Assembly: GCA_044892505.1 (NCBI GenBank)
Contig: CM097883.1
Coordinates: forward strand, 242,358,001 to 242,422,000
From: Schmidtea nova
Taxonomy: Eukaryota
DNA: 64,000 bases
Reading direction: 5' to 3'
The notes below the pieces were generated by a model that was given only the letters and a program-made list of their open reading frames with translations, did no database searches and was not told the origin of the DNA. The translations under genes and the position numbers were made by a program. How positions within the stretch are numbered: the stretch's first letter is position 1; each line of letters opens with the position of its first letter. This document shows, in pieces, positions 1-26,066 of this stretch.

Positions 1-792
1 AATTCAATCAGATTTTTTAAATAAAATTCTACATCTAAACTAAATACTAAAAAGGTTGAACCGCCATGTGAGACCCTGAGGCCCCACAACGACGACTCGG
101 ACTCCCTTGCCGCGTGAGAAGCCTAGGAAGTATAACTATATGCATGATTAAAAATTAAATTCAGATTTAGAAAAATTAAAGGTTTCATAAAATTATAATT
201 ACTAAACGATGAAAATCATGGATACATCAAAATAATAAATAATCAAAATAACAAATTACGTTCCGTACTCGAATGTGTGGTTCCTTGTATGAAAATCGGT
301 TTCTCGAAAAGTATCGTTCCGTTAAATAAAATATTTCTTAAAATCAAAGTTTAGTCTTGATTGTAAGTTAAAAGTAAAATGTCTGTTGTTGTGATTTTTG
401 GATCGGTATTTATACTGATCCGTCTGGTTGGATTGACCAATCAGGATCAGGCCGTCCATCAAAGTATTTTTATTATTTTATTCTAACCTAAACATTATTT
501 TGTTTCCTTTTCCGGTTTCTCGCTGGGTGGTCCTGATTTTCCAAGTAATTAATTAATTATTTGCACTATTATTTTATTTAATTCTATCTTTTCTTATTTC
601 AGGCCCCCTTTTGCTGTTGTTTAACGGTTTATTTTCAAAATTTCCTTTTACTGAAAATTTATCAAATATTATTTGTCATTTTATTGTTATTTTTAATTTG
701 TTTTTCTTGTTATTTTTATGTTTATTATTTTCTTTATTGTTTCATGTTTTCGCTCTTTTATTGTGTTTTTAGGTGATTTGGCGGGCCCAACA
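1..792 (-). repeat. 3' LTR, partial (about 1.44 kb predicted to lie upstream of the window)
   Basis: Near-identical to 29015-29806; I counted about 5 substitutions and no net indel by eye. Ends ...GCGGGCCCAACA, which is TGTTGGG on the element strand. Confidence 0.97.
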
Positions 793-993: not shown

Positions 994-1563
994 TTATACA
1001 ATTTGTTCGATCGTCTGGCTCGCTTGGGGTTGAGTTCGGGTCCTCTCGTTGATCATTTGTAGCTCGTAGTGGGTTTGAATGTGGTTGAGATGGCTCCTTA
1101 TTCGTCTTTGAGCTCGGTTATCTCGTCTGGAGGTTTGGTTGTAGATTTTCTGCTTTTGTTTTAGGATTTTTATTCTATATGAGGCAAGTAGGATTGTGAT
1201 TGCGATGATAGTTGTGCTGACTGATAGGATTATGATGATTGCTATGATCCATTTTTCTTGATATTCTATTTCAGCTTGGGATAGGCTTTTTATGGGCTCT
1301 CTACCTTCTTTCAGGATTTTTCGGGTTTATTTTAATTTCAGTTGTTGGTTACCGAAGATTTGTTGGATTTGATGGTCTTGATTGTGGGGGTATTTCTGTC
1401 GGAATTCGTTGATTTCTTTAATTACTTCTTCGATTAGGCTGTCTACTTTTTGGTAGGTTTTGTCGGGTAGAACTCGTAATTGGGTTTCGGTTAGTTGTAG
1501 ATCTTCTTTCTGTAGGGTAATGGTTGTTAACCATAGAAGTGTTGCTATTGCGAGCTTTCTCAT
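994..1563 (-). pseudogene. Small type-I membrane protein (signal peptide, ectodomain, TM, basic tail) split by one in-frame TAA at 1327-1329
   Basis: MRKLAIATLLWLTTITLQ is signal-like. The frame stays open for 110 codons after the TAA and includes WIIAIIIILSVSTTIIAITILLASY; final stop at 994-996. Confidence 0.7.
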
Positions 1564-1638
1564 CTCTTTTATACATCGGTCAATACAGCTTGACACTTTT
1601 TATTTTACATAATTTATTTACACTTGGTTTCCGCACAT

Positions 1639-2700
1639 TTATACAAGGGTTTCGTTGGGTTCGTGAAAACTTTCGTCTTGAGGTTCCACCTGATTTATGG
1701 GGAGTGGCATCCATATTACCGTACTCCTCCACATTTCCACTTCCTCTCGGTACGTGTTGGATATCTGGATCTCTTCATCTAATAAGTATTCCAGATAGTT
1801 TGCCTGTTCTGTTAGGGTTTCTATTTGTCTTTCTAGTTCCATTAATCTTTTCTCTCTCTCTTCTTTCTCCATCATTTCCGTTACTGCTGCTGTAATACTT
1901 GTTTCCTTTGTGGGTATTGGTTTTTCTGTCAGCTTTTTCCTCAGTTCTTCGTTTTCTTTTGTCAAATTGGTTATGTTCTCCTCATAACTCTGCCTCGTTT
2001 CTTCCAGTCTTTCTTTAGTTCTTTTTAATTCTATTTTCTTCTGGGTAATCACTCCTTGATATCCATTTATATCTCTTTTCATGTTTTCTTCCTTGTGATT
2101 CCACATTCCGGTCAGCATACCTTTTAATTGTTCTTGATTGGCTAAATCCTCTCCCATTCTTTGTACTTGATAAGTTAATTCTTTAATTTTCTTGGCTTGT
2201 TCCCTGATGAATTGCTGTCTTTTCTTACTCCATACTTTATTTGACGCTTCTTGACTGATCTTTTGCCCTAATTCCTCTTTTAATTCATCGATCTCTTTAA
2301 ACAGTTTCCAATCATCGCTATACGCTGTTCGTTCTATTATCTCCCTTGCTTCCTTGTAAGAGTCTTTTGCCTCTTTCTTCCAATATCTTGCTTGTTCGGT
2401 GATTGACTGGATCTTATGGTCTGTTTTTATCTGTTGTCTATCCCTATCCTCTCTTCGCTCTTTCATCATCTCTTTGTAGTATTCATTTTGTTGCCTTAGC
2501 AGTTTGTAGACTTCTTCTATTTTTTCTCGACTTCTTTGATTCGTTTTCTCGGCTTCTCTTAGTGCTTCGGTTTGTCTTTCCAATTCCTCCTGTTTTCGAT
2601 AATAGGCATGAATCCATATCCCAATCCGCTCCATGTGATTGCTGATCATTTCGTCTTGATGTACGGTTACTTCTTGTAAGGTTACTTCTATATTTCCCAT
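1639..2700 (-). CDS. Accessory coiled-coil protein, 353 aa, unknown function
   Basis: Long ATG ORF, E/K/Q/R-rich heptad-like sequence, same strand and composition as the element. Confidence 0.75.
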   Translation of the reverse strand: MGNIEVTLQEVTVHQDEMISNHMERIGIWIHAYYRKQEELERQTEALREAEKTNQRSREKIEEVYKLLRQQNEYYKEMMKERREDRDRQQIKTDHKIQSITEQARYWKKEAKDSYKEAREIIERTAYSDDWKLFKEIDELKEELGQKISQEASNKVWSKKRQQFIREQAKKIKELTYQVQRMGEDLANQEQLKGMLTGMWNHKEENMKRDINGYQGVITQKKIELKRTKERLEETRQSYEENITNLTKENEELRKKLTEKPIPTKETSITAAVTEMMEKEEREKRLMELERQIETLTEQANYLEYLLDEEIQISNTYREEVEMWRSTVIWMPLPINQVEPQDESFHEPNETLV

Positions 2701-2813
2701 TTCTATAATTACAGATAAAAAGAATATTTAATCAGTTTTTATTTTTATTGTTTTTGATTATTTGTTATTTCATATTGTTTCTATACATTTTATTTACATG
2801 GTTACTTCCTTCA

Positions 2814-4190
2814 TTACGCCAACCATCCTTTTCTATCCGTTTTCTCATGCCTCTCCATTTCTATGTATAGCGTGTCTGCATATAGTCGCTCCCATAGGTT
2901 TTCTTTCCTTATGAACATTGGTTCTCCTACTGCTAGTCCGCATTCTGTTGTTGGTTTTTCACTCGTACTCGTATGTTTGTCTGTCTCGAAGAACTTTTCC
3001 ACTGGTTTTCCTATACTTTTGATTCTTATAATGACTCCTACTTTCAAGGGCCATTCTATTAGGTCATCGTATTCTCCTTTACATAACGAGAAAAATATTG
3101 ACACGTGTGTTCCTTGTCCTCTTCCGTCTTCATTTGGGTATACCTTCAATCTTATTTTGACCCCATTTTTCCATAAATAAAATGGTGGGCTTATTACTGC
3201 TGTTTTAGTCATATTTCGGGCTTCTGTTAGTTTGTCTCTGAAATCTGTTATTTTCCATAGGTAAGGTGCAATTGGTAAGTCCCTTCTTTCGTCAATTTCT
3301 CGTATTAATTGATTATATTGTATCTTCATTCCTTTTCCTAACTCCTCTATGGCTGTTATTTTCTCTTCCATTCTTTCGCGAGTTAGTTCAAACTGCTCTC
3401 TCGTTTCTAGTAATATATTTACCATTATTTTATGTGATTCCACCTCTTTTCCCAGTTTCTGGATTATCTGTTCCGTTTCTTTTGCTGCTTCGTTTGTCAT
3501 CTCCACATGTATTAGTGCTGCTTCTTCCAGATGCTGTTTCATTGTTTGCCGCGTCCGCTTTTCCTTGCATCCTTGTTTGTTATATGGACATTCTCTTGGT
3601 CTTTCGGTACATACTTTCCAATGTTCATGTAACTTTACTTCTTCTGTTATTTCGCAATTGTTTGGACATTTACTTACATATTGTCCGCATACTTTCTCTT
3701 CCGTTATATTCAAGTGTTCTTCTTCAATTTTCCTCCTTGTTTCTTGAGTTTGGCAGTATTCGCATGCGATTTCTTCTTCTTTACATTCGTCCTTGTGTTG
3801 TTCTCTCTTCTTTAGAATTATTGACTGTTGGCACTTCTCGCATTCGGTTCTTTTCTCCTCGCACTTTTCCATATGGTTTTCTAGATTACTTATTTGTCCT
3901 TGCCATGTACAAGGTGTATTTACGCACTCCGTTGTGGTGCTCATAATTTCTCTTTGGGTTGCTTTGTCCGTTCTAGTTTCGTCCAACACTATTCTTCCTT
4001 CTTTACATTCTGGGCATGTTGTTATTCCTGTTGCATCTAATTCTTGTATACACTTCTTACATATTCTACATCCACATATCGTTTGTCTGGGTTCTCGTAA
4101 TAAATTGTTACACTTCCCGCATGTGAGCCTCTTGCTCCATTTTCTGTTTTCTAGTCTCAAAATTTCGATTATTCGTTCTTCTCTGTCCAT
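2814..4190 (-). CDS. TRAF-family protein (RING, TRAF zinc fingers, coiled coil, MATH domain)
   Basis: CGKCNNLLREPRQTICGCRICKKC..CPEC RING; CTWQG..LENH..C and CPYNKQGC fingers; YLWKITDF..SPPFY..G.KIRLKVYPN..G.GQGTHVSIFF..KGEYDDLIEWP MATH signature. Confidence 0.95.
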   Translation of the reverse strand: MDREERIIEILRLENRKWSKRLTCGKCNNLLREPRQTICGCRICKKCIQELDATGITTCPECKEGRIVLDETRTDKATQREIMSTTTECVNTPCTWQGQISNLENHMEKCEEKRTECEKCQQSIILKKREQHKDECKEEEIACEYCQTQETRRKIEEEHLNITEEKVCGQYVSKCPNNCEITEEVKLHEHWKVCTERPRECPYNKQGCKEKRTRQTMKQHLEEAALIHVEMTNEAAKETEQIIQKLGKEVESHKIMVNILLETREQFELTRERMEEKITAIEELGKGMKIQYNQLIREIDERRDLPIAPYLWKITDFRDKLTEARNMTKTAVISPPFYLWKNGVKIRLKVYPNEDGRGQGTHVSIFFSLCKGEYDDLIEWPLKVGVIIRIKSIGKPVEKFFETDKHTSTSEKPTTECGLAVGEPMFIRKENLWERLYADTLYIEMERHEKTDRKGWLA

Positions 4191-4301
4191 TTTCTACAAT
4201 AATATATACTTTTCTACAATAATATATACATTCGACTTGTCATTTATTTTTGATTTTTCTTGTTTTTATTTTACATATTTACAGTTTTCCGCTTTATTTA
4301 T

Positions 4302-4679
4302 CTATGGCTCATTCGTTGAATCTGGTTCCGCTTCGTTGTTTATTCTATTTATTACCCAACTCATCCATCCTTCTTCGGATTCTTCTCCTTCCCCTCGTGT
4401 TAAATGGTTTATTTCTATTGCTTGTCTTTGATTGATATTGCTTATATTTTGATTTTCTCTGGTGAGTTCAGTTATCGTTCTTTGTTGTTCCTCTATTCTG
4501 TGTAATTGCTCGAAACAGTTGTTATAACTTTCTGATAGTAACATTTGTTTTTCCGCTAATTGGTTCTGTAATGAGTTGACTGTTCGTACTAATAAATCGC
4601 ATTGCGCTTTCCATCTCATAGCCATAGTTATTTCAGTTGTTTCGTCTTGTTCGGTCATTTTCTGAATTATATACATCAT
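4302..4679 (-). CDS. Small accessory coiled-coil protein
   Basis: 125-aa ATG ORF with heptad-like Q/L/E pattern, lying between other cargo genes. Confidence 0.65.
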   Translation of the reverse strand: MMYIIQKMTEQDETTEITMAMRWKAQCDLLVRTVNSLQNQLAEKQMLLSESYNNCFEQLHRIEEQQRTITELTRENQNISNINQRQAIEINHLTRGEGEESEEGWMSWVINRINNEAEPDSTNEP

Positions 4680-4783
4680 TTACTTTGCTTTTCTGTCTTT
4701 TTACAATTTTTATAATATCGATACCCATACTATTACGGTAATGCTTTGTTATTTACACTATTATTTACAGTCATAATCCGCCC

Positions 4784-5236
4784 CTATACCATCATTATCG
4801 TCTTTTCCTCGTATCGTTCTTCATCTTCTATTTGTTTCCAGAATTCTTTACCTTTCGTTCTTCTTTGGAATTCTTTCTGTATCTCTTTTGGTATTTCTAT
4901 TCTTTGTTTCATAATTTTAATATCTGGCCATTGTATGGCTGTCGCTTTGTTTCTCTTTTTGTATCTCCAATATACTATTATGCTTGTCGTCAGTATTCCA
5001 TATGCTATTAATATTCCTATACTAATTAATCCTATTACTGTTTTTCCACGGTTTGTTGCTTTGATTTTATTCTGATTCGCTTTTATCTCATTTTGGGTTT
5101 GAGCCTCTGGCTTCTTCTCCTTCTGCACTTGATTCTTGACTTTGTTCATTACTTCTTGTGTAGACCAATGGCGGTTTAGTAGTTGTTTGACGTCATTTTC
5201 CGTTGTCTGGTTTTCTACGCCTCCTGGTTCGATCTG
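4784..5236 (-). CDS. In-frame continuation of the 1329-aa ORF beyond TAA 5237-5239: second TM anchor and tail
   Basis: I translated 5236-5150 as 29 open codons in frame with ORF 4784-5149. HWSTQEVMNKVK and LISIGILIAYGILTTSIIVYW parallel KWTPEEVIKEVK and LIGLGILTATIPVIIALSAIW in the upstream copy. Confidence 0.8.
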   Translation of the reverse strand, partial: QIEPGGVENQTTENDVKQLLNRHWSTQEVMNKVKNQVQKEKKPEAQTQNEIKANQNKIKATNRGKTVIGLISIGILIAYGILTTSIIVYWRYKKRNKATAIQWPDIKIMKQRIEIPKEIQKEFQRRTKGKEFWKQIEDEERYEEKTIMMV

Positions 5237-8200
5237 TTACTGCAGTTTCTCTGAGATCTGATATAATCCGCATTCTGGTTTTTCTGAACCTTTTCTGGTG
5301 AAGGTACATATCGCGTATGTCCTATTTACTTCCATTTTCTTTAATTCGACTTTTTCTTTATTCTTTATTTCTTTACAGTGGGTTAGGTTGTCTTCTTCCA
5401 CTTCTGGTTTATGTTTTGTCCAACATATTCCTTTAACTGTCTGATCAAGTCCTGTTAATGTCAGAGTTCTTTCTGTTTTAATTAGTTCTTCTTCATCGAA
5501 TTTCAGAATCTCTCCTTTTCGGAATGTCTTGCAATTCTCTGTTCCGGGTTGATCCTCTTGGGTTCCTTTCTCCCATATACATATACTTCCTTCTTCGTTC
5601 ATTTGTATTTCTTGTATTTCGATTTCCTTGTTTGTTCGTGATTCGTCGCTTGTCTGAACTTGGTATTCCTTCCTTGGTTCGTTGTATGTTCCCCAGCATA
5701 GTTTGTTGCTGCTTGTTTTTCTTATTGTTATGGCCATTTGTTCTATTATTATTCCTCTGTCAAAACGTTTGGACATTGCTATTATTAACGCTATGCATAC
5801 GCACTCTTGTTGGGGTGATATTCTTTCTCTCGTGTTATTGGTGCTTCTCTCCCCTTCTCCTGGTTTATCCGTTGTGTTTCTTATCTGAGTTGCTGGTTGA
5901 TCTATTGTGTTTTTGATTTCTTTCTTTGTTGGTTTTACTCTATACCATTCAAGTCTAGGCGTTTCGTATTTTTGGCATACGACTGTCTTAGGTAGCCCCG
6001 ACTTCTTTTCCTTTCCTATTATGCATATCCGATGCATGATTCCTCTATCCATCCCTTCTATTCGTACTATATCCTGGTTGGATTTTCTGATTATGCATTT
6101 TAGTGGGTTATCTTTCCCAATTAGTTCATCCTCTCTATTCCAGCATATTTTCTCGACCTCCTGGACATTTACTATTTTTATCCCTGCTTGTAGGTTTGTT
6201 GCTTCTTCCCTATTGATTAATGTCAATATTATTGTTAGACCCAACCATTTCGAACTCTGCGGTAGGCTTCTGGTTCGCCTTTCATATTTTTTCTCTTCGC
6301 CTTTAATCTCTTTTATTTCCTTGTCTTCGTTGTTTATTCCTAGTTTTCCGCTTTTTGCTTCTTTCTTATTTGGTTCTTCTCGTGCTTTTTCTTCTAGTAT
6401 TTCTACTCCATGGCTTGTATTATCTATATTTAGCCATTGGGTTGTTGATTTTCTGGGACTTATCTTGCGTATCCATATAGCTGATAAGGCGATTATTACT
6501 GGTATGGTTGCTGTTAATATTCCTAAACCAATTAATTCTTTAATTTGTTTATTCTCGTCTGTTTGTATAGATTCGCTTTGGTTGAACATTATTCCGTATT
6601 GTCCTTTTAGTTGTCTCCTTAGTTGTTCGCGTTCCTGCTGCTTTCTTTTGACTTCTTTGATAACTTCTTCCGGTGTCCATTTTGCTTGAGGATCGGTTAT
6701 TATTTTTTCTGCGTCCATTTGTTCATTCGTTTGGCTTAGTTCCTTGAATTCGAGTTTCCTTGCTACTCCTTTTGATGTCGCGTTTGCTGGTGTATAGTAG
6801 GTTTCGCATCTTTCTTGTTGGTTTCCTAGTGCGTCCATTTTTTCTATTGTACATACTTCATACTCGCTATTAAATTGTAGTTTTTCGATCCTGATTTCTT
6901 TATTTGTTTTTCTGCACTCTCTTGATTGTCTTCTTATATGTTTCTGGACTATTATCCAACATATTTCCAATGTTTTATTCTCTATTTTCCATAATGTTAG
7001 AGTTGCTGATGTCTTTCTCTCGGGTTTTGTCGTAACTTCCTGGCTTATTGGTTGTTTATTGTTTTTAAAGGTAGTGGTGTACTTCGGTTTTCCTTTGTTT
7101 CGTTGTTTCCTTTTATTTTTCCGTGTTAACGTTTTGGTTCTTGTTCCGGATGAAGTTATATGTATTCCGCATTCTAGGTCGTTTATCGTTATCTGATCAT
7201 TTTTCTTTACCAAACATATTTCGTAGGTTTGTTTACTTTCTAACCCTTTTATTTGTATCGTTGTTGCTCCTGTGCTTGTTCGGCATTGTGGTGTCATTCT
7301 TTTATTTACTTTCTTTTCGTACTTCCTCCAGCATACTCCTTTCACATTTGGTTCTATCTCTTTTATTTCTAATGTTATGTTTACTTTCCGCTTGATTTGT
7401 TTATTTCTCTTCCTCGTTCTCCTTCTGAACTTTATTACTTCTCCAGGTTGAAATGTTTTACATTTTGTGGTACCTTTCTTGTTTGTCTCTTTTTCTAGTA
7501 GGCATAGTTTGTACGTCTTATCTGCTTTTACTTCGGATACTTTAATTACTTTATTCGTTGTTGGTTTTCGACTTTTCCTTATTTCATTTACGCCGATTTC
7601 CTCGTTATTCCTCGCCCAACATTTTATGTTAGTATTCTGTGTATCTTCTACTTCTGTTATTGTCATAGTTTCAATTTCTATTCCTTCCTCTAATCGTTTT
7701 ATTATTATTAGTATGAGTGCTAAGTATAATACTTCCATTTGGTAAGACACTCTTTCGGTTTCGTTTGTGGCAACTCTTGCTTCGGGCCTCTCTATTGTAA
7801 TTCGTATAGTTGGTGTTGTTTGCTTATCTATTGCCTGGGGTTTTTTGTTTTCTGTTCCCTGTGTCTCTGTTCTTCCACATTTTCCGATGATGTAATCTCC
7901 TTTGGGTGACTGTTGTATTGTCATGGCTGCTTTAGGTGTTTGGTATTTTGCACATGCGATTGTGTTGTGTGATCTTGGATGCTTTTGTTTTCTAACGGTG
8001 CATATTTTGTACCAGGTATTTAGATCTAGGTCGTTGATCTCTATGATTTCTTGCTCGTGTTCTGAGATTCTGCAATCCATCGGACTATTTTGTTCCGTGA
8101 TTTTGTCCTTTTTTGACCAACATACTCGTTCGATTCCTTTTGCGTTTTTTATTTGTATTATTGCCCTTTCTTCACATGTCATTCCTTGACTTGGGTTAAT

Positions 8201-9226
8201 TAACGTTAAAATCACTGTTAATAATAGTAATTCTGGTTTGAAGAATGGTTTTATGGTTGATTTATAACCTGTTCTTTGGGTGTCATTTTTATCTCCTTGG
8301 TCGTTTTTTCCTTGTTCTCCCTCTTCATCTCTTTGTTTTTCGTCTTCATTTTTCTTTTCTTCCTTGTCTCGTTTCTTGTCTTTTCTCTCGTTTTCCTCTT
8401 TATCGGGTGGTTCGTGATCGTTTGAATTTTCTGAGTTGTTATCGTCGTCACTATCTGCATTGTCATCTCCCCCTGGCTCGTCGAAAATGTCGTCCTCGAC
8501 ATTGATTTCTTCTATTAGTTTTGCATACGCTAATGTCGTTAGATTACTTGCCTCGAATTCTTGTGTTTCTACCTGCTCCGGTATTACTTTGTTAGTGGAT
8601 TTATATTCCAAGATTTCCTTTTTGGCCTTGATCCAATTGTTGATGTATGTCTTCATCAATTCTTTCCATTTGCCTGTGTATTTTTCTTCTTTCGGGCTGG
8701 TTGTGATTTTTAGATCCTTTCTTTCCATAAACATCTTCAATATCTCTGGCCATTTATATGTTATTAGGGCACTTCTTATACACCAGTTTTGGTTATGTTC
8801 TGTAAACTCATTAATCCTGAATGCTAGTTCGTTGGTATTCGGATTTATCCACGTAAGTATTGATTCTGTTAGTTCAACATTGTGCATCATTGTCAATACA
8901 CTGGGTTTCTTAATTGTTTTGGTTAGGTATTCTATTTCTTCCTGGTTTGAGACGGTTTTAATGAAATTGACCATTTCCCAATTGTGTGTTAACAATGCTA
9001 CATCCAATATTGAATTATCTTTATCTGTTTTACCTGTAAGTCCTGCACCTGCTTTATATAGTTCTTCCAACACCTTTGTTTTTGTTTTGGCCCTTGCTGC
9101 AAATATCATAAGTGTATCTCCTTTCTCGTCTATCATATTCATGTTGCTTCCGCAGTTTAGCATTACTCTTGCAATTTCCATTACTTTTCTGTCTTTGCCA
9201 TTTCGTAAAGCTCTATGTATGGGCAT
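5237..9226 (-). CDS. Ankyrin repeats, helical domain, acidic linker, then two signal-peptide-led blocks of FN3-like modules (about 7) with a TM
   Basis: MPIHRAL, KGDTLMIFAA and NSILDVAL are ankyrin-like. Repeated CW..IxxLxxxxxYxIC..C modules. Hydrophobic segments LLLLTVILTLIN, LGLTIILTLIN and a TM near 6470-6535. Confidence 0.85.
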   Translation of the reverse strand: MPIHRALRNGKDRKVMEIARVMLNCGSNMNMIDEKGDTLMIFAARAKTKTKVLEELYKAGAGLTGKTDKDNSILDVALLTHNWEMVNFIKTVSNQEEIEYLTKTIKKPSVLTMMHNVELTESILTWINPNTNELAFRINEFTEHNQNWCIRSALITYKWPEILKMFMERKDLKITTSPKEEKYTGKWKELMKTYINNWIKAKKEILEYKSTNKVIPEQVETQEFEASNLTTLAYAKLIEEINVEDDIFDEPGGDDNADSDDDNNSENSNDHEPPDKEENERKDKKRDKEEKKNEDEKQRDEEGEQGKNDQGDKNDTQRTGYKSTIKPFFKPELLLLTVILTLINPSQGMTCEERAIIQIKNAKGIERVCWSKKDKITEQNSPMDCRISEHEQEIIEINDLDLNTWYKICTVRKQKHPRSHNTIACAKYQTPKAAMTIQQSPKGDYIIGKCGRTETQGTENKKPQAIDKQTTPTIRITIERPEARVATNETERVSYQMEVLYLALILIIIKRLEEGIEIETMTITEVEDTQNTNIKCWARNNEEIGVNEIRKSRKPTTNKVIKVSEVKADKTYKLCLLEKETNKKGTTKCKTFQPGEVIKFRRRTRKRNKQIKRKVNITLEIKEIEPNVKGVCWRKYEKKVNKRMTPQCRTSTGATTIQIKGLESKQTYEICLVKKNDQITINDLECGIHITSSGTRTKTLTRKNKRKQRNKGKPKYTTTFKNNKQPISQEVTTKPERKTSATLTLWKIENKTLEICWIIVQKHIRRQSRECRKTNKEIRIEKLQFNSEYEVCTIEKMDALGNQQERCETYYTPANATSKGVARKLEFKELSQTNEQMDAEKIITDPQAKWTPEEVIKEVKRKQQEREQLRRQLKGQYGIMFNQSESIQTDENKQIKELIGLGILTATIPVIIALSAIWIRKISPRKSTTQWLNIDNTSHGVEILEEKAREEPNKKEAKSGKLGINNEDKEIKEIKGEEKKYERRTRSLPQSSKWLGLTIILTLINREEATNLQAGIKIVNVQEVEKICWNREDELIGKDNPLKCIIRKSNQDIVRIEGMDRGIMHRICIIGKEKKSGLPKTVVCQKYETPRLEWYRVKPTKKEIKNTIDQPATQIRNTTDKPGEGERSTNNTRERISPQQECVCIALIIAMSKRFDRGIIIEQMAITIRKTSSNKLCWGTYNEPRKEYQVQTSDESRTNKEIEIQEIQMNEEGSICIWEKGTQEDQPGTENCKTFRKGEILKFDEEELIKTERTLTLTGLDQTVKGICWTKHKPEVEEDNLTHCKEIKNKEKVELKKMEVNRTYAICTFTRKGSEKPECGLYQISEKLQ

Positions 9227-12200
9227 TATTCCGTCCTTTGGTAGTAAAAAATGTTACTGGCATCTCCTTTTTTATAGTCGTTATGTCGTTACCATTGTAT
9301 GTTCCTTTTGCGTATGCGTGTACTTTTTCAACTAATGCGCCGAGTATTTCCAGTGCATGTTTACTATTCTCGAATTCCGGTAACAATTCTTTTGCTTTTT
9401 CTTGTATCGCATCTAGTCTAGCTTGGTATGGTGCTTCTGCTTTGAAGAGTGGTGTGAGTTTCCTGTTACTTTCTCTTTCTTTTTTCTCCAAAACCTGTTT
9501 GCATTTTTCGGGGTGGTTTAGGATTTTTACTAGTTCATCATACTCATTTACTATCGTCTGGTATTTCTCGTTAAAATTGTTTATGTCTTTGTATGTTATT
9601 AGTTTATCAAGTGGTTTCGCACACCATTTCCTAATCTTGTTGAATAAAGCCTCCTTCTCTTTATCGAATTTGTGTTCTTCTTCATTCTTTGTGATGTTTA
9701 TGTTCCCTCTGTCTAATAAGGTTAGTAATGTCTTTTGATCGCAAGTAAATTTCAAAAGATATCTTAACAGCGCGTTTTGTCCTTCGCTGTATACTTCGTT
9801 TATGTCTAAGACCCATGTATCATCTTCTGGTCGTTTCCATTTGATTAACTTACGGATCGTGTTGCATTTACCAATTTTTATTGCTTCTTTGATAATGTCT
9901 CCTTTTATTAATTCGTCTATTTCCCACGTGGAGTTAGCTATTATGTATTTCAGCATTGGTTGGTGAGAACTCCATATTACGTGATTTAGCACTGTTTTGT
10001 CTTCTCTATCTCGTTCTGTCCAACTGAAATGAGCCTTTATCAACAGATCTATCATTTCTTTATCTGCTTGGTGGATTGCGGCTGTCATTATTGGAGTTTC
10101 TTGTTCACGATTCCCCACGTCCAAGTTTTGGTTTGTTTCTTTTGCCATTTTTAAGAATTCTTTTGCTCTTTCAATGTTTTTACACTCTATCGCATTGTGT
10201 AAGGCTGGTTGTCCTCCTACATCTTTCAATAAGAGTATTTCAGGGATTTTTTCCAATAATTCAGAAATAATTGGTTCGGTTGGTAATCCTTGTGCGTAAC
10301 GGCTAATTATGTGTCTGATGTCCCTTGATATGCCTACTTCGTCTTTAACATGCCATCTTCCCATTATTTCTCTCGCCTTCAATATGATCTCTTTATTTCT
10401 GATTTCCTTTTGCCTTACTTCCGCTTTGTCGTCTTCGCTTGTGTTTGCTCTGAGCATATTTATCCTGGCTGTTTGTGATCTGGTTATTATTCGATTCTCT
10501 GGTGTTGTAGTTATTGTTTTAGGCACCTTCTTACATCTGCAAGTGTTTACATATATGGGTCGTATTAACGGTCGATTTATTAGCTTAACTTTGACATTAT
10601 TGTCCTTTTTGTATATAATTTCATAAGGTCCTCTTCCAGGTCTTTGGAGTTTCTTAACCGTTCCTGGTATTATTTCGGGAGTTTCTATTATCACCCAATC
10701 TCCTGGTTTTAGGTCGTTCGCTTTAACATTTTTCTTCTGGTCGTGTAAATCCTTATAACTTTCCTGATAAAATTTAATGTTAAGTTCTGCCGTCTTCCAT
10801 ATTTCCTGCATTCTTTCTTTGAATTTGGTTACGTAGTCGTCGTCTTCCATATATTGCGATAATGGTGGTTGATACTCTAAATCTATGGGCATGTTGCATT
10901 CTCTTCCATACATAAGTTGAAACGGGCTTAGTTTTGTTGCTGCATGTATCGACATGCGGTATGCCATTAAACATAATTTTATGTATTCGTCCCAATCGGT
11001 TTGATGTCTGCTGACGTAATTTGATAACATTCTAATCAATGTACCGTTGAATCTCTCTGTTTGTCCATTCGTTTGCGGGTGATATGGTGAAGTTCTCAAT
11101 TTTGCTATTCTGAAATAGTTGGTCACCTCGTTCAGTAACTCACTCATAAAGTTGGTTCCTTGGTCTGTGAGAATTTGTTTTGGAGTTCCGTATCTGCAAC
11201 ATATTTCTTCCACTAGAATTTTTGCTACGGTTTTTGCTTTTTGATCTTGCATGGCAAATGCTTCCGGGAATTTCGTCAGATAATCCGTTATTACCAATAT
11301 ATAAATATTTCCGTTTAAACTTTCTGGTAATGGTCCTATTACGTCCATTGCTATAGTTGTCATTGGCTCTGCTGGTATTGGCATTGGTTGTAGTGGGTTT
11401 TTCCATTTCTTCCCACTATCCTTTCTGGTTGCACAGGTTAGGCAATTTTTAATCCATTCTTTAATATCTTCTTCCATTGTTCGCCAATAATATTTTTGTC
11501 TCATACGATTTATTGTCTTTTTCTCTGACATATGCCCTCCTAATTTCCCATCATGGTATTGGATCATTATCTCTTTCCTTCTGTTTTCCGGTAAGCACAT
11601 CAATTTCTTTACCCCGTCTTGTATTAACAACCATTCTTTGCTTAATATATAGCGATGTTGATATTTTCCTATATGTTCCTTTAATTCCTTATTATCCTTG
11701 AATACCTCCATATTTCGAGATGTTAGGAACTCTATGATTTGTCCTAATTCTTTGTCTTCCTGCTGATCTCTCTTAAGCTCGCTAAAATCTAAATCTTCTG
11801 CTATTAATACACAAATTCGTTGTACATCAGGATCGGTTAGTTCCGGGAATGTCAGTCTTGACATACAGTCTGCATTCGCATTTGCTCTTCCTGATTTAAA
11901 TTTTATATCTGGTGAGTATTCCTGTAACTGCATTGCCCATCGCATTAATCTACTGGATGTTTCTTTGTGCTGTCCTAACCATACAAGCGGTTGGTGATCT
12001 GTTGTTATGCAGATGATGTGTCCCCATAATAAATATTTAAAATGTTTAATCGCTAATATAATCGCTAATGCTTCCCGTTCTGTCACTGAATAATTTTTCT
12101 CATGCTTTTTGAATGTCCGGCTATAATATCCGATTACACGTTCTTTTCCTTCATCATCGTATTGTCCTAATACTGCTCCCGCTGCATATCCGCTTGCATC

Positions 12201-15200
12201 TGTTGCAAGTAGGAATGGCTTCTTAAAGTCTGGGTGTACCAATATGGGTGCGGTTATCAGTTTATCTCTCAACGTTTCAAAGGCTGTTTGTTGTTCATCC
12301 CCCCATATGAATGATACATCTTTCTTTACCAGCTCTTGTATAGGTTTTGCGATTCCGGCGTAATCTTTAATAAACTTTCTATAGTATCCACATAGTCTGA
12401 GAAATTCTTGTATTTGGGTTATTGTTTTTGGTACTGGGCATTCTTTTACTTTGTCGATATTTCTAGGATCCGGTTCTTTTCCTTTTGCTGACACTATATA
12501 TCCTAAAAATGTAACCTTTTCTTTTGCCCAATCGCATTTGGATGGCTTGAGTTTTAACTTCCATTGTCTAAGCCTAACGAATACATCTCGAATATCCTGT
12601 ATGTGTTGTTCTAATGTACTAGAATAAATTAATAAATCGTCGATGTAGACCATGCACTGCTTTATTCCATGGGTGACGAAATTCATGCATCTCTGAAATG
12701 ATGCTGGTGCGTTTGTTAATCCAAATGGCATTTTTCGGAATTGATATAGGTCTCTACCGATGGTAAAGGCAGTTTTCTCTTTATCTTCTTCCTTCATTTT
12801 TATTTGCCAATATCCGCTTTTCAGATCTAACGACGTAAAATATGCTGCTCCTTGTAGTGTTAGTAGCATTTCGTTGATGTCCGGTAATGGATAAGTATCC
12901 CGTTTGGTCACGGTATTCAATCTTCGATAATCTATGCAAAATCTCTGTGTTCCGTCTTTCTTCTTTACCATTACCACTGGAAATTGCCAGGGTGAACAAC
13001 TTGGTTCGATTACTTCCGCATCCAACATTTTCTTCACTTCTGCTTCTGCTACTGCTTTCTGTGCTTCTGCTAATTTGTATGGTCTTAATGCAATTGGTGT
13101 TTCGTCTGTTAATGGTATTGTATGTAGTGTGACATCACATGTTCCTAGATCTAAATCGGATGCTGCAAATATATCCTTATACTCTATCATGAGTTTTTCT
13201 AACTGCTTCCTTTGATCCTCATTTAATAATTCACTATCAATATTCCAGGTTGGTTCTTTATCTTTCTCTGCTCCTTCTATTGGTAGTTCGATATCCATCA
13301 TTGGGGTTAATTTACCTAATCTTTCGTTTTCGTAGATTATTTTGTCCTCTTCATCGAAGTTTACTACGTTTATTGGGATTTCTCCATCGTCATTTATGTT
13401 GACTAGTCCTCTTGCCATTGGTAATGCTTTTCTTTTCTCGAATCTTTTGCTTGGTTCGAAAATCATATCCCCCTGGATTGTCGGATCTATTTTTACATAA
13501 CATATTTTTTCCTTTCTTGCGGGTATTATCATTTGCTTTGAACTTGTCACTTTGGCTTCTATTGCGCATATTTGTCCTGTGCGATCTTTCAGTCTCATTG
13601 TTCCGAGATCGATTACAATCTCTTTAAATAATGCTGGCATCAAATCTGTTCCGATAATGCAAGGTACGCTTAATGCTGGTATGACGGCTACGTACGTATC
13701 GATTTCTGTATTTAAGTGGCGTATTTTTACCCACCATCTTCCTGCTACTTCTACGATTTCTTTGCTACATGCAATTACGTGGACGTTTGTCCTTTCTATT
13801 TCCCGTCTTTGCTCTTGTGGTATCCATTTGATATCGATGGCGGAAATATTTGCTCCAGTGTCGATCATTGCTTCGATTTCTCTTCCGTTAATCTCTATTG
13901 TCGTGGTTAATACTGGACCTGTGTTTGATGACATTACTGCGATCGTGTGTGTATCTCCTTGTGGATCTACGCTTCTACATCTTCTCATTTTATAATCTTC
14001 TGGTATCATGGGGTATACATTTGTCATTGGCATCATTTGCATCGTGCTATTTTTTCCTCCTTGTAGTGGTTCTTGATACATTGTTGGTGGAGGTGCGTAA
14101 CATTTCCATGCGTCGGCTGGATTCTTTTCGATGTACTGTGGTGCTTGGTTCTTATACACTTGTCCTCCTTTATAGTCGTCATCGTCATCATCGTCGTCAC
14201 TCGAATCATTTTGGGTTTTATATCCTTTCATCCTCTCCCATAAACCTTTTCTTTCTCTCTTGAGCTGTTGTCTTGCTTGTTCGTCGTTCATTATCTTTTT
14301 AAATTTGCGTCCTACTTCTTCATCTGTTCCCTTCATTTTTGCTAATATCTTTAGGAGTCTTTTTATTCGGTGGATATCTTTTGAGTGACCGTGTAACACC
14401 ATCGTTTTCGCAAGGAATGGTAAAAATCCTACTACCATTTTCCAATTCACTTTCTTTTCTCTCTTGTAGATATCGAAACACGCTAGCATTTGCGTTATTA
14501 TCACTCTGACGATTTGTATTATTAATATAACCCCTAGTATTCCAGCCATCATTTGTCCGAATATCAGGAATCTTCCCCACATTGCTTTCATCATATTTTC
14601 TGTGGCTTTCTTGAAATGTGCTGGTGACAACAATAGTTCATAATTCGGTCCTTCTCGATAATCCGTTCCTCCCGTTATCGTTACGATATTTAACAGTAAT
14701 GCTTCTCTTCTCGCCGGGAATAATATATTCTGCCTTGCTGCTTCTAAATCTTTTGGGCTATATATTCCGTTGTTTGAGACATCTACGTCGCTGAATTGCC
14801 TATCCTTTGACAACTGCATTAGTTCGAATTCTCTTGGTGCTATTACTTCGGCTCTTCCTGGGAACATAACCCATTTACCATCTGGCTTCTGATAAAGCGG
14901 TCCGTATGCATTACTACAGTTGAATGGATTTGGTTCAAACCCTGGTGGATTGATGATTCTCGTCACCGGTTGAACGTATCGTACTTTTCCTTTGTAATCG
15001 ATTTCTAACTCATTTGTACAGGTTCCAGGTTTCAACTGTGTTGTTGCTGCTAGTGACGCGTGTGTCTTTTCGCAAATGTATACATACATTGCTTCTCCAA
15101 CCACTCTTCCGAAATGTCCTTCTCTCAGTGGTAATAATGGCATCGCGCTATCTGGATTCGTAATCGCTACGGCCAACTTTGTCTTTAATATTTCTCGATT

Positions 15201-18200
15201 CAGTATACAATCATTATTTATCAGATCGTAATACACTTTTTGTAATGAGGCTTGTCCTCTATGGAATAAGAAATCCATTTTATTATTCACATACAGGTGT
15301 AGTTTGATATCCATTGTGTCGATTTTGGGTTTCGCATTTGGTACTTCTTGTTTTGACACATATATTCCTGGGTAATTCGTTTCGTATACCGTTGTACTAC
15401 ACTTAAGGGTTGCTTTCCCTTTTATGAACCTCATTCCCACATCCTGATTTGTGGTTATCAATACTGTTGGTGTGGCTCTCATCTCTATCCGTTTTTCCCT
15501 ATGATCTGGTTTCAATTGTCTTTTATTCTCCAACGCTTCCTTGAGATGCTTTGCTCTAGCTTTGTCGTCATCGTCTTCTTCCTGGAATGTCTTTCCTTGA
15601 ATTTCGTCGAACTGTGCTCCTTGTAGCAGTTGTAATTGACATTCGTTCACCTTTGGTTTGTATACTAATGTTGACATTCCCGTTTGACACATGCTCCTGT
15701 CGATTTTACACATGGATAACGTTTTCATTTCTCCCGTTGTTGGTTCGAAGAATGCTTCATAGCTTTTTAATTCGACTATATACGTATCCATCACCACTAA
15801 GTTAGTTGCGGGTGTTCCGAATATCGGGTAGGTTTCTCCTTGACAATATCCTTCTCCTCCCGTAATCCTTCCTGCTACATAGTATGTTTGTTGCAGCATC
15901 ATTCCTGGTTTTCCTCTTATCTTGATTTTATCTCTTGTTGTTACTTCTCCATGTTTAAACAATGCTTCGCAGTCTTCTCCTTGTAACACGATTGGTTCTC
16001 TTTCCGTTCCTGGCATGACAATTGCTGAATAATGTCCTCTCCCGCAGTAGAATGCGAATCTCGTCTTCTGCACCTTACATTCATTCACCATTGTCTTTAT
16101 GAGTTCTGCTTCTTGATACACGTGGTACCATTGTTCCTTTTTAATCTTTTGTAACTCTACTGGAGTTGCATCTTTGCATTGCTCCGTACCTCTCAATGAA
16201 TACTTTTCTCCTAACTTCATTTGGTCGCAATCAAACACTTCGAATGCTGTTGCGCTATCGGTGCTAATCATCCATATCAACATCATCATTATTATAGAAC
16301 TCAAATTCATTGATGACTTCGCGTTTCCTGTTCCTGCTTGTTCTTTTTCTAACTCTTCCAATATTTTTTCGAATTTCTTTTTCATATTCTTTGCTTGCGT
16401 TTTCTTCTGGTTATTTTTTATAAATGTTTCCCATCCTCCTTTGTTAATGACGTATGGTTCTATTTCTCTGGCTATAATTTTTGCGGTATTTTTTATATGT
16501 CTCTCTAATGCAGTGGGTTTTGGTCGACCTCTACTCAGTGTCAACAGATTGTAGATCGTGTATGCAATGGCTATTATGTATTTATTATCCGTTTCCGCTC
16601 CTTCTGTCAGTTTCTTTATTAACGTAGTGGTTCCTTGCCAGTCTAAATGATTTGATTTCGTCTTTTCTTTTATGAATTCCGGTAAGATGGGTGCGATTGC
16701 GCTGTGTAGTGACTTCGCCTTTTCGCTTATCTCAGTTATCCGCCAGTATTTTCTTAATTCCGGATCAATTATTGCCAATATTTCCATTATTGTTTTCGAT
16801 ATCCATTCCTCCCCTTGACATATTGGTGTTGTCTCTTTTTCTTTTATCTCCGCAATTTTATTTAGTTTCCTTAAGCATAATTCCCATTGGTCTTGTCTCT
16901 TTTCATCCTTATTTCTGATGACTACATTCGCTGGGTCTGTCTTGGGTCTACCTCGAGGTCGTCTATCCATTCCTGTACCTGTTTCCACAAACCTTGTTGC
17001 CCGTCCGGTTTCCTCGGTGACATCTCTTGGTTCGTTAGCTCTTTCTTCTAACCATCTTTCCATTTCCTGGGTTAATTGTACATTTTCGGCATATGCTCCT
17101 CTTGTTTCATCTTCTGTCAAATCGTTTACTTCTTCTATTATTATCTCTTGTTCGACTTCTGTTTCTCCGGTGTTGGTTACTTGTATTGTCGTAGGTAATT
17201 CTTGTATTCTTTCGAAAATGTTATCGTCTTTTTCCTTTGTTAATTCGGTTAGCTCTTCTATCATATCGTCACTATCCGTTAAAATTTCGTCTACGTCGTA
17301 TGGTTGTGGTGGAGTACTTTCTCTGGTTCCTCTGGGTGTTGTCTCAGATCGTCTCGAACTTGTCCCTGGCGTTAGTACTGATTTCATCGGGCTCGGCGTA
17401 CTTATACTTCCGTGTGGTTTATGGTTTTCTTCTTTACGTTTCAATGGTTGCCCCGCTATTGCTTCCACTGTCAAGGTATTCATGAGATCTAATTGTGCTG
17501 GCGTTATTCCGATTTCCAAACTGTTATCTAATGATCGTCCTTGGTGTTGTAAATGGAATGGTGGTTCGTATCTCAATTTCTTTTTAATATCTCGAATTTT
17601 TTCTGCTATTCCTACCCAAAGCTCTTCCTTATCCTTGTTTGGATATATTATTCTTAAATGTACTTTTTGTGGAATTTCTTGCGAGAATTCTTGATTTCTC
17701 CATTTCCTAATTACGTGGTCTAGTTGTTCCGGGCACCACTCGTTAACTCTTTTATATTCCGCGATTGCTTTTGCTACTTTACGTAAACATGTTATATCCT
17801 CTCCATTTACCACGAAAAAATCTGCGAGACCCTTTATTACTTTTCTCTTACCGTGCGCATTAGTTTTTAATATTTCGACAAATTCTTCCGTTTTTTGCTT
17901 TTCCCTTTCTAACCACATAGCCGCGGTTTCTGGTCCATCTAGGTCTATCGGTGTAGCTTTCCTTGTCACCATGCAAACCCTTCCCATTTCTGGTTCGCAG
18001 TCATCTTCCATTCCTCTTTCATATTCTTCTTCATATTCTCCTTCTTTTGGTTCCCAACATTTTCCTTTCTTGTTCCATTGTTTTTCTACGGGTGTTCGTA
18101 TTCGTCTGTTGAGGTTGAGTTCTTCTAATACATTTTCCCACTCTGGCCAAATTCGCCAATTTCGATAAATTTCTACTATTTGTTGTAATTTGCGCACAAC

Positions 18201-21200
18201 TTCTTTCCGTCGTTCCCGTTCTCTTTTCTCATCTTTAGCAGTTTCTCTGGGTGTATCGTCCATTCTGATAACGTGGATGGTTTGGTGATTATCCCATATA
18301 CCGATTTTATATAGTCGTCTCTCATCGTGATCCCATAATACATGTTCGTTGTATTGTATGATTATGTCGTCTTCCCATTCGTCTTCTGGTTCTCTTTGCA
18401 CTAGTGTCTCGTTGATGACATTTATTAATTCTTTAATGGTGCAATCCGCTACCACTTCAATTTCTTTGGTGTCTTCATTAGGCAATTCTACTGAAATTTT
18501 TAGATCCGTTATTTTCCCTTGTCTAAACATTATTTTTCCCATTTTTGCGATTAATTTGTCGTGTGAGATCTGTGACCATCTCGTGTGGCTTGTGTCACGT
18601 ATGCACTCAATACATCGTTTCAATTTCTCGTATTCGCTTCTCATTAACTCTTTTCTATGTTTTTTGACTTGTGGTATGATTTGTTCTATCAGGGAATTTA
18701 GATTCTTTCGTAAGACTCGTTCTTTCTCGTATTCTAACCGGGGTTTTATTCTCCTTTCGAAACACATGTTTGCTTCCTTTGCAACTTCTTGTAGGTTCTC
18801 TTCTTCTTTTTCATCACATATTGATAACAGAGTTATTTCTCCTGGCCATATACCTGTTTCCACTAAGTGCGTTCTTTTCTTTACGAGTCTATTCTGCGAA
18901 TAGATGAATTTGTTTTTATATGAGCTCCCGAGCCTGTCTTCTACCCATCTGTAGATATCATCTGTAAATGGAGTTTTGATCCAGATTCTTGGTGTAGATG
19001 TATTTATTATTATTGAGATGGTGTAATTGAGGAGTGGTTCCTCTATTAATTTCCCTACGTATCGATTTAACATGTCTACTTCTCGGTCTTGTAACCATTC
19101 TTTGTAGTTCATTTGTAATAATGCTTTCATGAATTTCCGATATTGTTTCTTGTCCATGAATTCTTCGTTATATATTACTTCTAGCGAGTTATCTAATAAT
19201 TTCTGGATTTCATCTACTTTTATCTGTGTAGGTTCTGAGGTCTTTATTACTTCTCTCTCTTGGTTTTCGTCTTCGGATTCGTTTAATATGTCTCCTGCTA
19301 GGCTACTGATGTCACTATCTTCTTCCTCATCGGAAAACTCTCTGGTGGTATTTCTTAACATATTAATATGTGCTATTTGGTTCGTTTCCCCTTGTATGTT
19401 CTCCGTTGGTTCTGGTTCGTTTTTGTCAATCTCTGATGTTGGTTCACTCTTGTCCTCTATTACTTCGACCTTTCTCATTTTCTTTTCCAACTCGTCTATT
19501 TCTTTTAAACGTCTTCTTATCATTTTTCCTTTAAATATTCGACTGATTCGGGTTTCGTGACGCACTGGTGGTGGAATTTCTTCTGGTTCTATTTCTTTAA
19601 TAATCATCACGTTTCTTTTTGTTTCTACTACTCCCATGTTTTCCCATATATCCGTTAATTCCAACTTTACTTTTGGCGCACCTTCTATTTGTAGGAACGC
19701 TTCTCTGGGCAGTTTCGTTACTCCTAGAACCATCTGGTTTACTTTGTTGAATAATATTCCCACTTCTTCTTTTACGTTATACTGGAATCTAAACACGGAT
19801 TTGTTGGGCATGATTACCATCATTCTTCTTTTCCAAATCTCCCTTTTCTCTTCCTGGTTTGTCTCAGTTTCCACTTCCTTTTCTATTTCTTTTTCTACCT
19901 CCTCATCTTTTTGTACTATCTTTTTTTGACTTTTGTTGTCGGCTGGATTCGGGTCTATCGAATTCATTTCCAGTGTGGTTTCTTTCTCGCGAGTGTCTGT
20001 TTGGTTTGTTGCTCTTAGCATGTTAATTCTTAGAGGTTGTCGCTCTCTTTCTTGCTGTTTTTGTTCATCCTCTCTTTGTATTCTTGCCCATTCCTGAGCG
20101 TGTCGTGCCTGACTTTCTCGATTCAAACGTTCGTTTTCGCTTTCTATTTTTCTCATCATGCTAATTTGCTGTTGATTGGTTTGCGGATTTCCTCTCGTCG
20201 TATTGTTTATCAGTTCCGTCAACCTTTGAACTTCTTGCATCAAATGTATTTCTTTGGGGGTGGTTTTGTTCTGATTATTGTTATTATTGACTTGTTGGTT
20301 CCCATAATCTTGTCGGTTTACGGTATTTGTTTGATTTCCGTAATTTTGTCGGTTCCCATTACTCTGCCAGTTTCCTCGCTGATTACTTTTTTGTCCGCAA
20401 TTTCTTGAATAGTGACCAGGTCGTCCGCAATTAAAACAGATTATTGTAGAACATCTACTTTCCGAATGTCCTTTAACTCCACATTTTCCGCAATTCAAAT
20501 TTTGATAGCATTCTTGTTGCCAGTGTCCCAATTTTCCACATGTTTTACATTGTCTTGTTTGTCCTTGAGGGTTGTAATTGTTTTGGTTTCCAAAGTTCTG
20601 CACTTTATTTCCTTCATTCCTTCGTTGAGGGGGTGGTCGGTTTAATTGTTGCGAATTTGGAATGTGATTGTTGAGATTTACCTGTGGTTCGGTTTGTGCT
20701 GTGTCCATGGCTAAATAAATTCTGCCCTCACTTCCTATCATATGCAATTCGAATCGGTTAGCTGTTTCTAACGCTTGATCAATGGTCTTGCATCCTTGGC
20801 ATCCAACTTGCGCTCTTATGTCAGGTCTTCTTAGTCCTCCTATGAAGATAGCTGCCATTAACTCCTCGTTTATTGGACCTCCATCCTTGAATACCGATTT
20901 TGCTAATTTTTTCAGTTCACTCGCGTATACCGCATTAGATTCATTCATCTTTTGTTTCCTCATTGAGAATTCTATGAATGCCTCGCTTAGCACTTTATTT
21001 ATTCCAAATGTTTGTTGGAAAAAATCCTTTATCGCTGTCCAGCTTGTAGGTGGATTGGTACCATTTTTCGCTTCCAAATATAGGTCCAATGCACTATCTT
21101 TCAAATATAACTGAATTCTGCTTACTGTTGTTTCCGCTTTCCATTTGCATACTTCCACGAATATGCCAAATTCCTTTAAAAAGGTTTCTAATTTACTCGC

Positions 21201-22381: not shown

Positions 22382-22934
22382 TGTAGTGGCACGGTTCATT
22401 CATATATTAAATTACAAAAAATTAAAAATTGTTTTGTAAAAAACTTGTTATTTAAAAATTGTAGTTTAAAAATTAATTTTATAAAAAGTTGTTTAAAACT
22501 ATCAAAAGTTGTAAATAAAAATAAATATTTGTTATCTTAATTTAAAAGTGTTTTCTTAAATGGCTTCCAGTATTTCATTCATTAATATTGAATATTTGAC
22601 ATTTAATCACTGCAAACAATCGGATTATACCAATAGCGAAGAAGTCATTCAATTACAATTCAATGATCTCTTTGGATTACTAAGAACTGAGGCCAAGCTT
22701 AATAATAATCTTTCATCAAAGGACGATTTTGAAAGGCTATTCAAAACATGGATTCCATCTGTTGATAATCAGTATGAACAGACAATTAATGAGCCATTCC
22801 ATGATGCGATTTTATTCCACAGTACTCAAAGTCGACTCAGTAGAAGTTTAACAAATTTAAAGATAAAAACAGATACTGACTCAAACATAATGCTAGAAGG
22901 TTTCGAGAAGGCGCACTACGCCCGAAACACTTCA
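22382..22934 (+). repeat. 5' LTR of the nested element (553 bp)
   Basis: Starts TGTAGTG, ends CACTTCA; its last 147 bp (22788-22934) repeat at 25585-25731 with one mismatch seen. Confidence 0.88.
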
Positions 22935-24323: not shown

Positions 24324-24439
24324 TCACCCCGTTTCTTCTTGCGGCAGAAGTAGGCGGTAATCATCCACACAATTTTTTTCTCAAACTCTTCTCACCTAGT
24401 TTTTCTTTTCTCTCATCTCCTTCTCTCAATTCTCCCGAA

Positions 24440-25731: not shown

Positions 25732-25772
25732 CCCTCTATTACTATTTATCCGGATATCTCTATAGTTCACTA

Positions 25773-26027: not shown

Positions 26028-26066
26028 AACGCCTAGCTAGGTCATTCAATATGGCTCATTGGCCTC

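Follow-up and report, generated by a model that had tools for sequence, protein, structure and literature searches.

A full-length TRAF gene inside a Burro-like Ty3/gypsy element of Schmidtea nova and its retention across the element family

TRAF-related cargo is already known from the Burro elements of planarians (PMC6431247). The elements described there contain MATH_TRAF_C, BIR, ankyrin and BCL2-like domains together with an in-frame Env, and the same account proposes that Burro elements interfere with apoptosis and ubiquitination of the host, and calls for tests of this proposal (PMC6431247). Burro1 has been reported to be expressed upon loss of PIWI (PMC8532177). A parallel outside the retroelements is offered by ORF111L of ISKNV and by the TRAFs of iridoviruses and giant viruses. 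These are captured TRAFs in virus-like agents acting on host death signalling (PMC3352826), an action that for an element TRAF is a prediction. Unlike the element TRAF described here, they belong to DNA viruses and are independent captures with 11-28% identity to it (Foldseek matches), and ORF111L promotes apoptosis (PMC3352826). In the literature that we searched, we found no published account of a full RING-to-MATH TRAF in a downstream cassette, of its selection, or of a TRAF-IAP pair; the figures and supplements of Grohme 2018 and Jurka 2007 may show it.

We analyzed a stretch of 64,000 nucleotides of Schmidtea nova DNA, which we call the window. It contains a TRAF gene within a Ty3/gypsy element that is young, 29 kb long and env-bearing and belongs to the planarian Burro kind. 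The LTR pair around the TRAF gene is 99.6% identical over 2,233 nt and is accompanied by the 4-bp target duplication CCTG. On the minus strand, the order is 5' LTR, primer-binding site (PBS), 153-aa RING ORF, polyprotein, 118/125-aa ORF, TRAF, 353-aa ORF and 3' LTR. The parts of the element are as follows.

27574..29806, minus strand: 5' LTR of 2,233 nt, TG...CA (LTRs of relatives are 3.0-3.1 kb)
27550..27567, minus strand: primer-binding site
26780..27241, minus strand: 153-aa ORF, C-terminal RING of the IAP type, without BIR
22382..25732, plus strand: truncated insert of an unrelated small Ty3/gypsy element in the leader, window copy only
9213..21260, minus strand: main frame of the polyprotein, with Gag-CCHC, Env-like fusion glycoprotein, protease, RT, RNase H, integrase and ankyrin
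4784..9226, minus strand: remainder of the polyprotein, in two more frames in the window copy, with breaks near 9.2 kb and 5.2 kb
4302..4679, minus strand: 118/125-aa accessory ORF, adjoining TRAF upstream in lineages A, B and D
2814..4190, minus strand: TRAF ORF, 458 aa, full-length, TRAF2/3/5-like
1639..2700, minus strand: 353-aa coiled-coil accessory ORF, adjoining TRAF downstream in lineages A and B and lying two genes downstream in D
1..792, minus strand: portion of the 3' LTR within the window, running on to a 500-N gap left of the window

The primer-binding site resembles one for tRNA-Pro. One variant of it occurs 3,883 times in the genome, and no matching tRNA gene was found at the 6 of these sites that were checked. 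The window copy itself is defective; that is, its polyprotein is in three frames, a foreign gypsy piece sits in its leader, and both LTRs are short. They are ~0.9 kb shorter than those of the relatives and do not contain two LTR-borne ORFs (159-166 and 196-202 aa) that are intact there. Because the same ORFs are missing from both LTRs, the shortening is likely older than the insertion. Tandem arrays of 32-nt and 29-nt units occupy positions 25728-26332 of the leader. Across the 500-N gap left of position 1, a 13,380-bp stretch (L031-L032) with a second TRAF is 99.985% identical to positions -1432..11947 of the window, and this near-identical duplicate is most likely an assembly overlap of contig ends, not a true tandem copy. 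Outside the element, the window holds an exon of a host ABCD-type transporter (PF06472) at 37578-38372 and an RT-bearing ORF of a different retroelement at 62607-63998.

The closest described relatives are Burro1-4 / GYPSM1 of Schmidtea mediterranea, which share with our element a length of ~30 kb, long LTRs, a huge polyprotein with Gag, Env, PR-RT-RH-IN and ankyrin, and TRAF/MATH cargo (PMC6431247). In our element, the length is near 30 kb, the LTRs are of multi-kb size even in the window copy, the Gag is of the CCHC type, the enzymes follow the order PR-RT-RH-IN, and both ankyrin and MATH_TRAF_C are present. The Env (PF24664, aa 1926-2266) is in frame between Gag and the protease (aa 2453). 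A polyprotein of the described size, ~5,000 aa, is seen as a single frame of about 5,490 codons in 2 of 10 collected copies. As for BCL2-like and ubiquitin-like motifs, aa 1480-1640 gave no Pfam match to Bcl-2, and the match of aa 915-1000 to Ubiquitin_4 was weak (E 0.054). In contrast to Burro1-4 as described (PMC6431247), the window lineage encodes a full-length TRAF on its own, behind the polyprotein and among four ORFs that are packed closely into one cassette, and no BIR is present. Because of this lack of BIR, we filed the element as Burro-like and not as Burro1-4, which we compared by description only. An element of Dugesia tigrina is similar in carrying MATH_TRAF_C in an accessory ORF outside the polyprotein. 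That ORF, however, is upstream and only MATH is named for it, whereas the ORF in the window follows the polyprotein and adds RING, zinc fingers and coiled coil to MATH (PMC6431247).

The TRAF ORF is a single unbroken frame from ATG to stop. Its domains, all on the minus strand, are listed below.

4005..4121, minus strand: RING, aa 24-62, eight Cys, with Cys41 replacing the usual His
3507..3926, minus strand: TRAF-type zinc-finger region, about aa 89-228
3291..3518, minus strand: coiled-coil helix, aa 225-300, from the AlphaFold2 model
2856..3263, minus strand: MATH/TRAF-C domain, aa 310-445

The Pfam search gave MATH_2 above the cut-off on aa 310-445 (E 4e-20) and zf-TRAF on aa 166-220. The RING alone scored below the cut-off (zf-C3HC4_4, E 7e-5; TRAF3_RING, E 2e-4); it was aligned to the RING-zinc-finger structures of TRAF6, TRAF5 and TRAF2, with Cys41 opposite their His, and its motif was found in 30 of 30 loci. 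The AlphaFold2 model, built on a 32-row alignment, had a pLDDT of 90.6 and placed a 76-residue helix in front of the MATH sandwich. Its best Foldseek matches were TRAF3, TRAF1 and TRAF2. The protein has the coiled coil and MATH/TRAF-C as well as the N-terminal RING and TRAF zinc fingers by which the family is defined, the RING being C4C4. The initial annotation, which had described a complete TRAF with these four parts inside a retroelement and a Cys in place of the RING His, is borne out by the frame, the Pfam matches, the structure alignment, the model and the LTR pair. Among 144 RING motifs in 223 collected proteins, 16 had Cys at this position, 111 had His and 17 had other residues.

The A-rich codon bias of the element, also noted at the outset, is seen in the TRAF gene. 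At four-fold sites the values of A and T were 0.68 and 0.05 in the TRAF, 0.58 and 0.10 in the polyprotein, and 0.25-0.40 and 0.21-0.41 in 11 host frames. The codon usage of the TRAF correlated with that of the polyprotein at r 0.91 and with the mean of the 11 host frames at r 0.49.

A genome search with the TRAF protein gave 3,313 first-look candidates, of which 92 were scored. All 92 were full length with 93-100% identity; 85 had no stop and 7 had a stop. We then compared 10 copies of the element, 5 taken from the top 30 and 5 from the bottom of the list, and the TRAF was at the same place in all of them. In 8 of them the LTR pair was complete, had 0-6 mismatches and lay between matching 4-bp TSDs; the other two consisted of one copy with an interrupted 3' LTR and one with only the 3' LTR visible. 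The length was 29.2-30.0 kb in 7 copies and 15.5 kb in one. This internally deleted copy (L060-L063) has matching LTRs and TSD; Env and Pol are gone from it, but both the RING ORF of the leader and the TRAF cassette remain. Two types of LTR, ~76% alike at their 5' ends, sit on copies that are 92-96% alike internally, which suggests swapping of LTRs.

The initial annotation had named two findings that would speak against its reading: absence of the TRAF from other copies, or an insertion signature of its own, as left by a later passive retrocopy. Neither was found. When copies were picked by the DNA of a neighbouring ORF, the TRAF was present in 28 of 28, and 22 of these had no stop or frameshift over the part covered. 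At the TRAF we saw no separate insertion signature, but only spacers of 89-113 nt, which are kept in the sister family. Two exact patterns at the TRAF start occur at 106 and 139 genome sites and are held by 22 and 26 of 34 sampled copies, from which the TRAF family is estimated at some 160-180 copies at least.

Over these 34 copies, a sample that was drawn by protein score and leans to intact copies, the dN/dS of the TRAF was 0.09, and it was again 0.09 in 24 copies picked by neighbouring DNA. By domain, the values were 0.08 for the RING, 0.11 for the zinc fingers, 0.10 for the coiled coil and 0.06 for MATH; by class of variant, shared ones gave 0.08 and single ones 0.31. The value for RT, Env and Gag was 0.05. 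Of the 35 Cys/His columns of the TRAF, 33 were invariant in the 34 copies. We consider it almost certain that the TRAF is a selected, permanent accessory gene of this Burro-like family.

Homologues of this TRAF with 36-77% identity occur in four further element lineages. Beside lineage A, that of the window, lineage B has the same cassette with a TRAF 52% identical. Lineage C carries MATH alone, without RING, inside a polyprotein of 4,606 aa, and in this it matches the description of Burro1 (PMC6431247). Among the first 20 of the 3,883 PBS sites, 11 reach a TRAF or MATH within 5-25 kb, namely 3 A-like (69-77%), 2 of lineage C and 6 of lineage D (36%). Extrapolated to the genome from this sample, which comes from one chromosome end only, there would be about 2,100 element copies with TRAF or MATH (95% interval 1,300-2,900). 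Among the 150 matches listed in a genome search for MATH, about 73 were host-like and 77 were dispersed and element-like (three of the 77 were opened).

Lineage D (L165-L166, L169-L170, L177-L178, L189-L190, L197-L198 and L201-L202) accounts for 9 of the first 20 PBS sites, 6 with the TRAF and 3 without it. Its ORFs include protease-ankyrin, a 211-aa ORF, the TRAF, a BIR-RING IAP, a 515-aa ORF and others, and the element terminates in a C-type LTR. From 5 kb past the PBS to the 3' LTR we found no RT or Env, and the single copy that was checked for Gag had none. The TRAF immediately precedes the IAP, and its dN/dS was 0.15 among 6 close copies. BIR is present in lineage D and was found neither in the window element nor in the tested copies of A, B and C. 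A protein search with the IAP found no homologue. In one lineage D copy (L199:3577-5025), a 482-aa ORF with a signal peptide and a membrane anchor replaces both TRAF and IAP.

Since 17 kb separate the TRAF from the start of the polyprotein, a message of its own is required. The spacers on its two sides are as follows.

4191..4301, minus strand: spacer upstream of TRAF, with TGTA(A/T)ATA words, a T-rich tract and TAG three bases before the ATG; acceptor-like
2701..2813, minus strand: spacer separating TRAF from the 353-aa ORF, with an acceptor-like TAG at its end

With thresholds that were chosen after the sites had been seen, a YAG following a T-rich tract lies 1-7 nt before the accessory ATG in 5 of 7 cases in lineage A and 4 of 7 in lineage B, against 2 of 95 and 3 of 164 for other ATGs of the LTR and leader. 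No such signal was found before the polyprotein ATG. Four variants at the acceptor-like site of the TRAF were found, and all 4 keep the YAG. Lineages A and B share conserved spacers of 73-125 nt; two of the three spacers at 2701-2813, 4191-4301 and 4680-4783 are ~80-85% alike between A and B, and the four-fold sites of the TRAF agree at 28 of 56. At 4191-4232, the acceptor-like tract in front of the TRAF ATG is duplicated as a short tandem in the window copy and single in the other copies compared. The word TGTA[ACT]ATA, which we take to resemble a Pumilio site, is enriched in the spacers (7 against 0.36 in shuffles in A, 6 against 0.34 in B) and is absent from the polyprotein span. We also considered the spacers as poly(A) signals and rejected this, as AATAAA was not enriched (8 against 4.7 in shuffles in A, 3 against 3.1 in B); UGUA is reported to be absent upstream of planarian poly(A) sites (PMC5068929).

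Judging from these features, it is likely that the TRAF protein is made from a spliced message. The predicted template is a subgenomic RNA whose splicing, either in cis or in trans with a spliced leader, would use the acceptor-like site directly upstream of the TRAF ATG. Spliced-leader trans-splicing does occur in S. mediterranea. Candidate operons of flatworms have been defined by distances of 300 bp or less (PMC12582326). We searched the genome for a copy spliced at the TRAF acceptor and found none; patterns requiring a base other than the genomic one at -3 or -4 matched 1 and 3 sites, all of them point variants. The corresponding pattern for the leader RING ORF had 0 genome matches, and the deletion joint of the short copy was not located at an acceptor.

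What the protein does can be considered from its domains and its neighbours. Selection acts on all four domains, no less strongly on the RING than on the others, and in one lineage the TRAF is paired with an IAP. For these reasons we lean, by a modest degree, toward the prediction that the TRAF is an intact adaptor/E3 that alters death or immune signalling of the host. That is, the protein would trimerise, its MATH domain would bind receptor tails or adaptors, and together with an IAP of the host or the element it would ubiquitinate signalling proteins, so that cells expressing the element survive. Death and immune signalling of the host cell may be tilted in this way in favour of the element. 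The TRAF2-cIAP pair is an established partnership of this kind, and lineage D, though devoid of RT and Env, keeps the TRAF directly before the IAP in 6 of 9 copies. A full viral TRAF acting on host death signalling gives a precedent (PMC3352826), and knockdown of host TRAFs alters cell survival in planarians (PMC7586133). Since the one viral TRAF tested promotes apoptosis and does not block it (PMC3352826), the effect on cell death could go in either direction. Against the adaptor/E3 reading, the TRAF is missing in 3 of 9 lineage D copies, lineage C has MATH without RING, lineage A has no BIR, and the TRAF1/2-type cIAP-binding segment PF16673 gave no match at E up to 10 in any of four coiled coils (lineages A, B, D and host L110). 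TRAF3, TRAF5 and TRAF6 are not known to need this segment.

The same lack of the cIAP-binding segment would fit a decoy, or dominant negative, in which the TRAF would fill receptor tails or enter host trimers and shut off signalling, with no productive ubiquitination. The MATH-only cargo of lineage C agrees with this, and so does the MATH of lineage A, which in the alignment diverges from other TRAFs near the peptide-binding strand. A pure decoy, however, would not need RING and zinc fingers, which are as constrained as MATH. The replacement of His by Cys, which might be taken as a dominant-negative sign, does not hold as such: the Cys is a host trait, shared by 7 of 8 host RING frames and by Dendrocoelum, and the element RING has a low dN/dS. 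Likewise, the Lys between the first two RING cysteines is also found in mammalian TRAF3 (P0025). We think a decoy role unlikely, at about one chance in five.

Somewhat less probable still is a role within the element, in which the TRAF would ubiquitinate or scaffold element proteins or host restriction factors at particle assembly or release instead of acting on death or immune signalling. In lineages A, B and D the TRAF is indeed accompanied by two coiled-coil ORFs that belong to no known family, and the element has an Env and a second RING. Lineage D, however, keeps TRAF and IAP though RT and Env are absent (and Gag in the copy checked), and the cargo described as carried alongside in Burro elements is apoptosis-related (PMC6431247).

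As to its origin, the TRAF probably came from the host. The initial annotation had proposed a captured spliced host mRNA, long resident in the element. Host TRAF2/3-like genes of triclads (Dugesia japonica P0006, Dendrocoelum lacteum P0008, P0093 and P0097, and L106, L110-L112, L114 and L125) fall in the same clade, and every one that has a RING shows Cys for His; P0006 is a fragment that lacks the RING. The host frames L106, L110, L111, L112, L114 and L125 and one on C3 have this Cys, and like the element TRAF each holds all parts from RING to MATH in a single frame; an eighth host RING frame, a paralogue on C3, has Ile. The host genes differ from the element TRAFs in that they are ~26-33% identical over the length, have host-type codon use and lie outside an element cassette; in flanks of 40-110 kb there are Burro fragments nearby and no cassette neighbours. 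The identity of L110 to a Dugesia japonica protein, 70%, marks the host as a triclad planarian.

In trees of 36, 33 and 39 rows, a single clade (SH-aLRT 99) unites the element TRAFs of lineages A, A2, A3, B and D. It lies within a 25-row clade of triclad C4C4 TRAFs (100/99), as sister to three unnamed proteins (97/96). Lineage C joins the other elements in the MATH tree only at 91/84. An AU test did not reject a host-only clade, with the element TRAFs branching as the sister group of the host C4C4 TRAFs as a whole (p 0.14), the element rows being of unusual composition. The position inside the triclad clade agrees with the proposed host origin, and we infer that the capture went from host to element. 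The ancestral element would have taken up a host TRAF once, with its domains already in one exon, before lineages A, B and D split. Long residence is supported by the element-like codon use and by the presence in one clade of five lineages down to 36% identity. The proposal of a spliced mRNA was not supported: seven host TRAF genes run from RING to MATH in one frame, so the lack of introns is not proof of mRNA capture. Because the host TRAF genes have both the RING Cys and the single exon, neither was acquired in the element.

The flow might also have been the reverse, with the single-exon C4C4 TRAFs of triclads seeded by retroposition, possibly from such elements, the element being donor as well as carrier. 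This would account for host members of the clade with all domains in one exon, and the trees give no supported branching order at the base of the clade, where a host-only clade was not rejected. We regard it as very improbable, since the codon use of the host genes is of the host type, none of the cassette ORFs lies beside them, related genes occur in Dugesia and Dendrocoelum, and no G000 host gene is nested among the element rows. That the TRAF is a passive retrocopy or neutral hitchhiker is hardly credible: the window copy is indeed defective and its private changes in the TRAF mostly alter amino acids (8 residues, unique among the 34 copies compared and two of them in MATH, among 12 bases), but at the family level the presence in 28 of 28 and 10 of 10 copies, the dN/dS in both samples, the conserved spacers and the lack of an own TSD or poly(A) led us to reject it.

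Apart from the element copies, a real expansion of host TRAFs exists. A large host cluster at G000:C2:405-455 Mb (L116-L135) contains TRAF-like genes and dozens of separate MATH exons, and it forms a clade apart from the element TRAFs (100/99). The published expansions of planarian TRAFs, 99-121 or more, are counts of transcripts and domains (PMC6109357, PMC7586133). It had been suggested that element TRAFs inflate apparent TRAF numbers. Element copies do likely outnumber host genes many-fold; the host cluster, however, is separate and real, and the published counts come from transcriptomes. In addition, we considered piRNA cross-talk with host traf mRNAs, an idea prompted by PMC6824462, and did not retain it; the best 30-nt matches were 21-25 of 30, against 20-21 for a control gene.

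These results correct two tempting inferences, as both the lack of introns and the change of the RING His to Cys come with the host clade. When the TRAF family of planarians is counted, element TRAFs should be masked first. The selected full-length TRAF, and the TRAF-IAP pair of the non-autonomous lineage, are single ORFs open to expression and assay. In its widest form, which we put forward tentatively and with clear doubt, our reading is that Burro-type elements carry a receptor-proximal ubiquitin module, consisting of a full TRAF and, in one lineage, an IAP, in an operon-like cassette that the splicing or spliced-leader machinery of the host would cut into messages of one gene each. The commonest lineage in our sample, having shed RT and Env, may persist by this survival kit, and some two thousand TRAF/MATH copies may act on cell death of the host and outnumber its own TRAFs.
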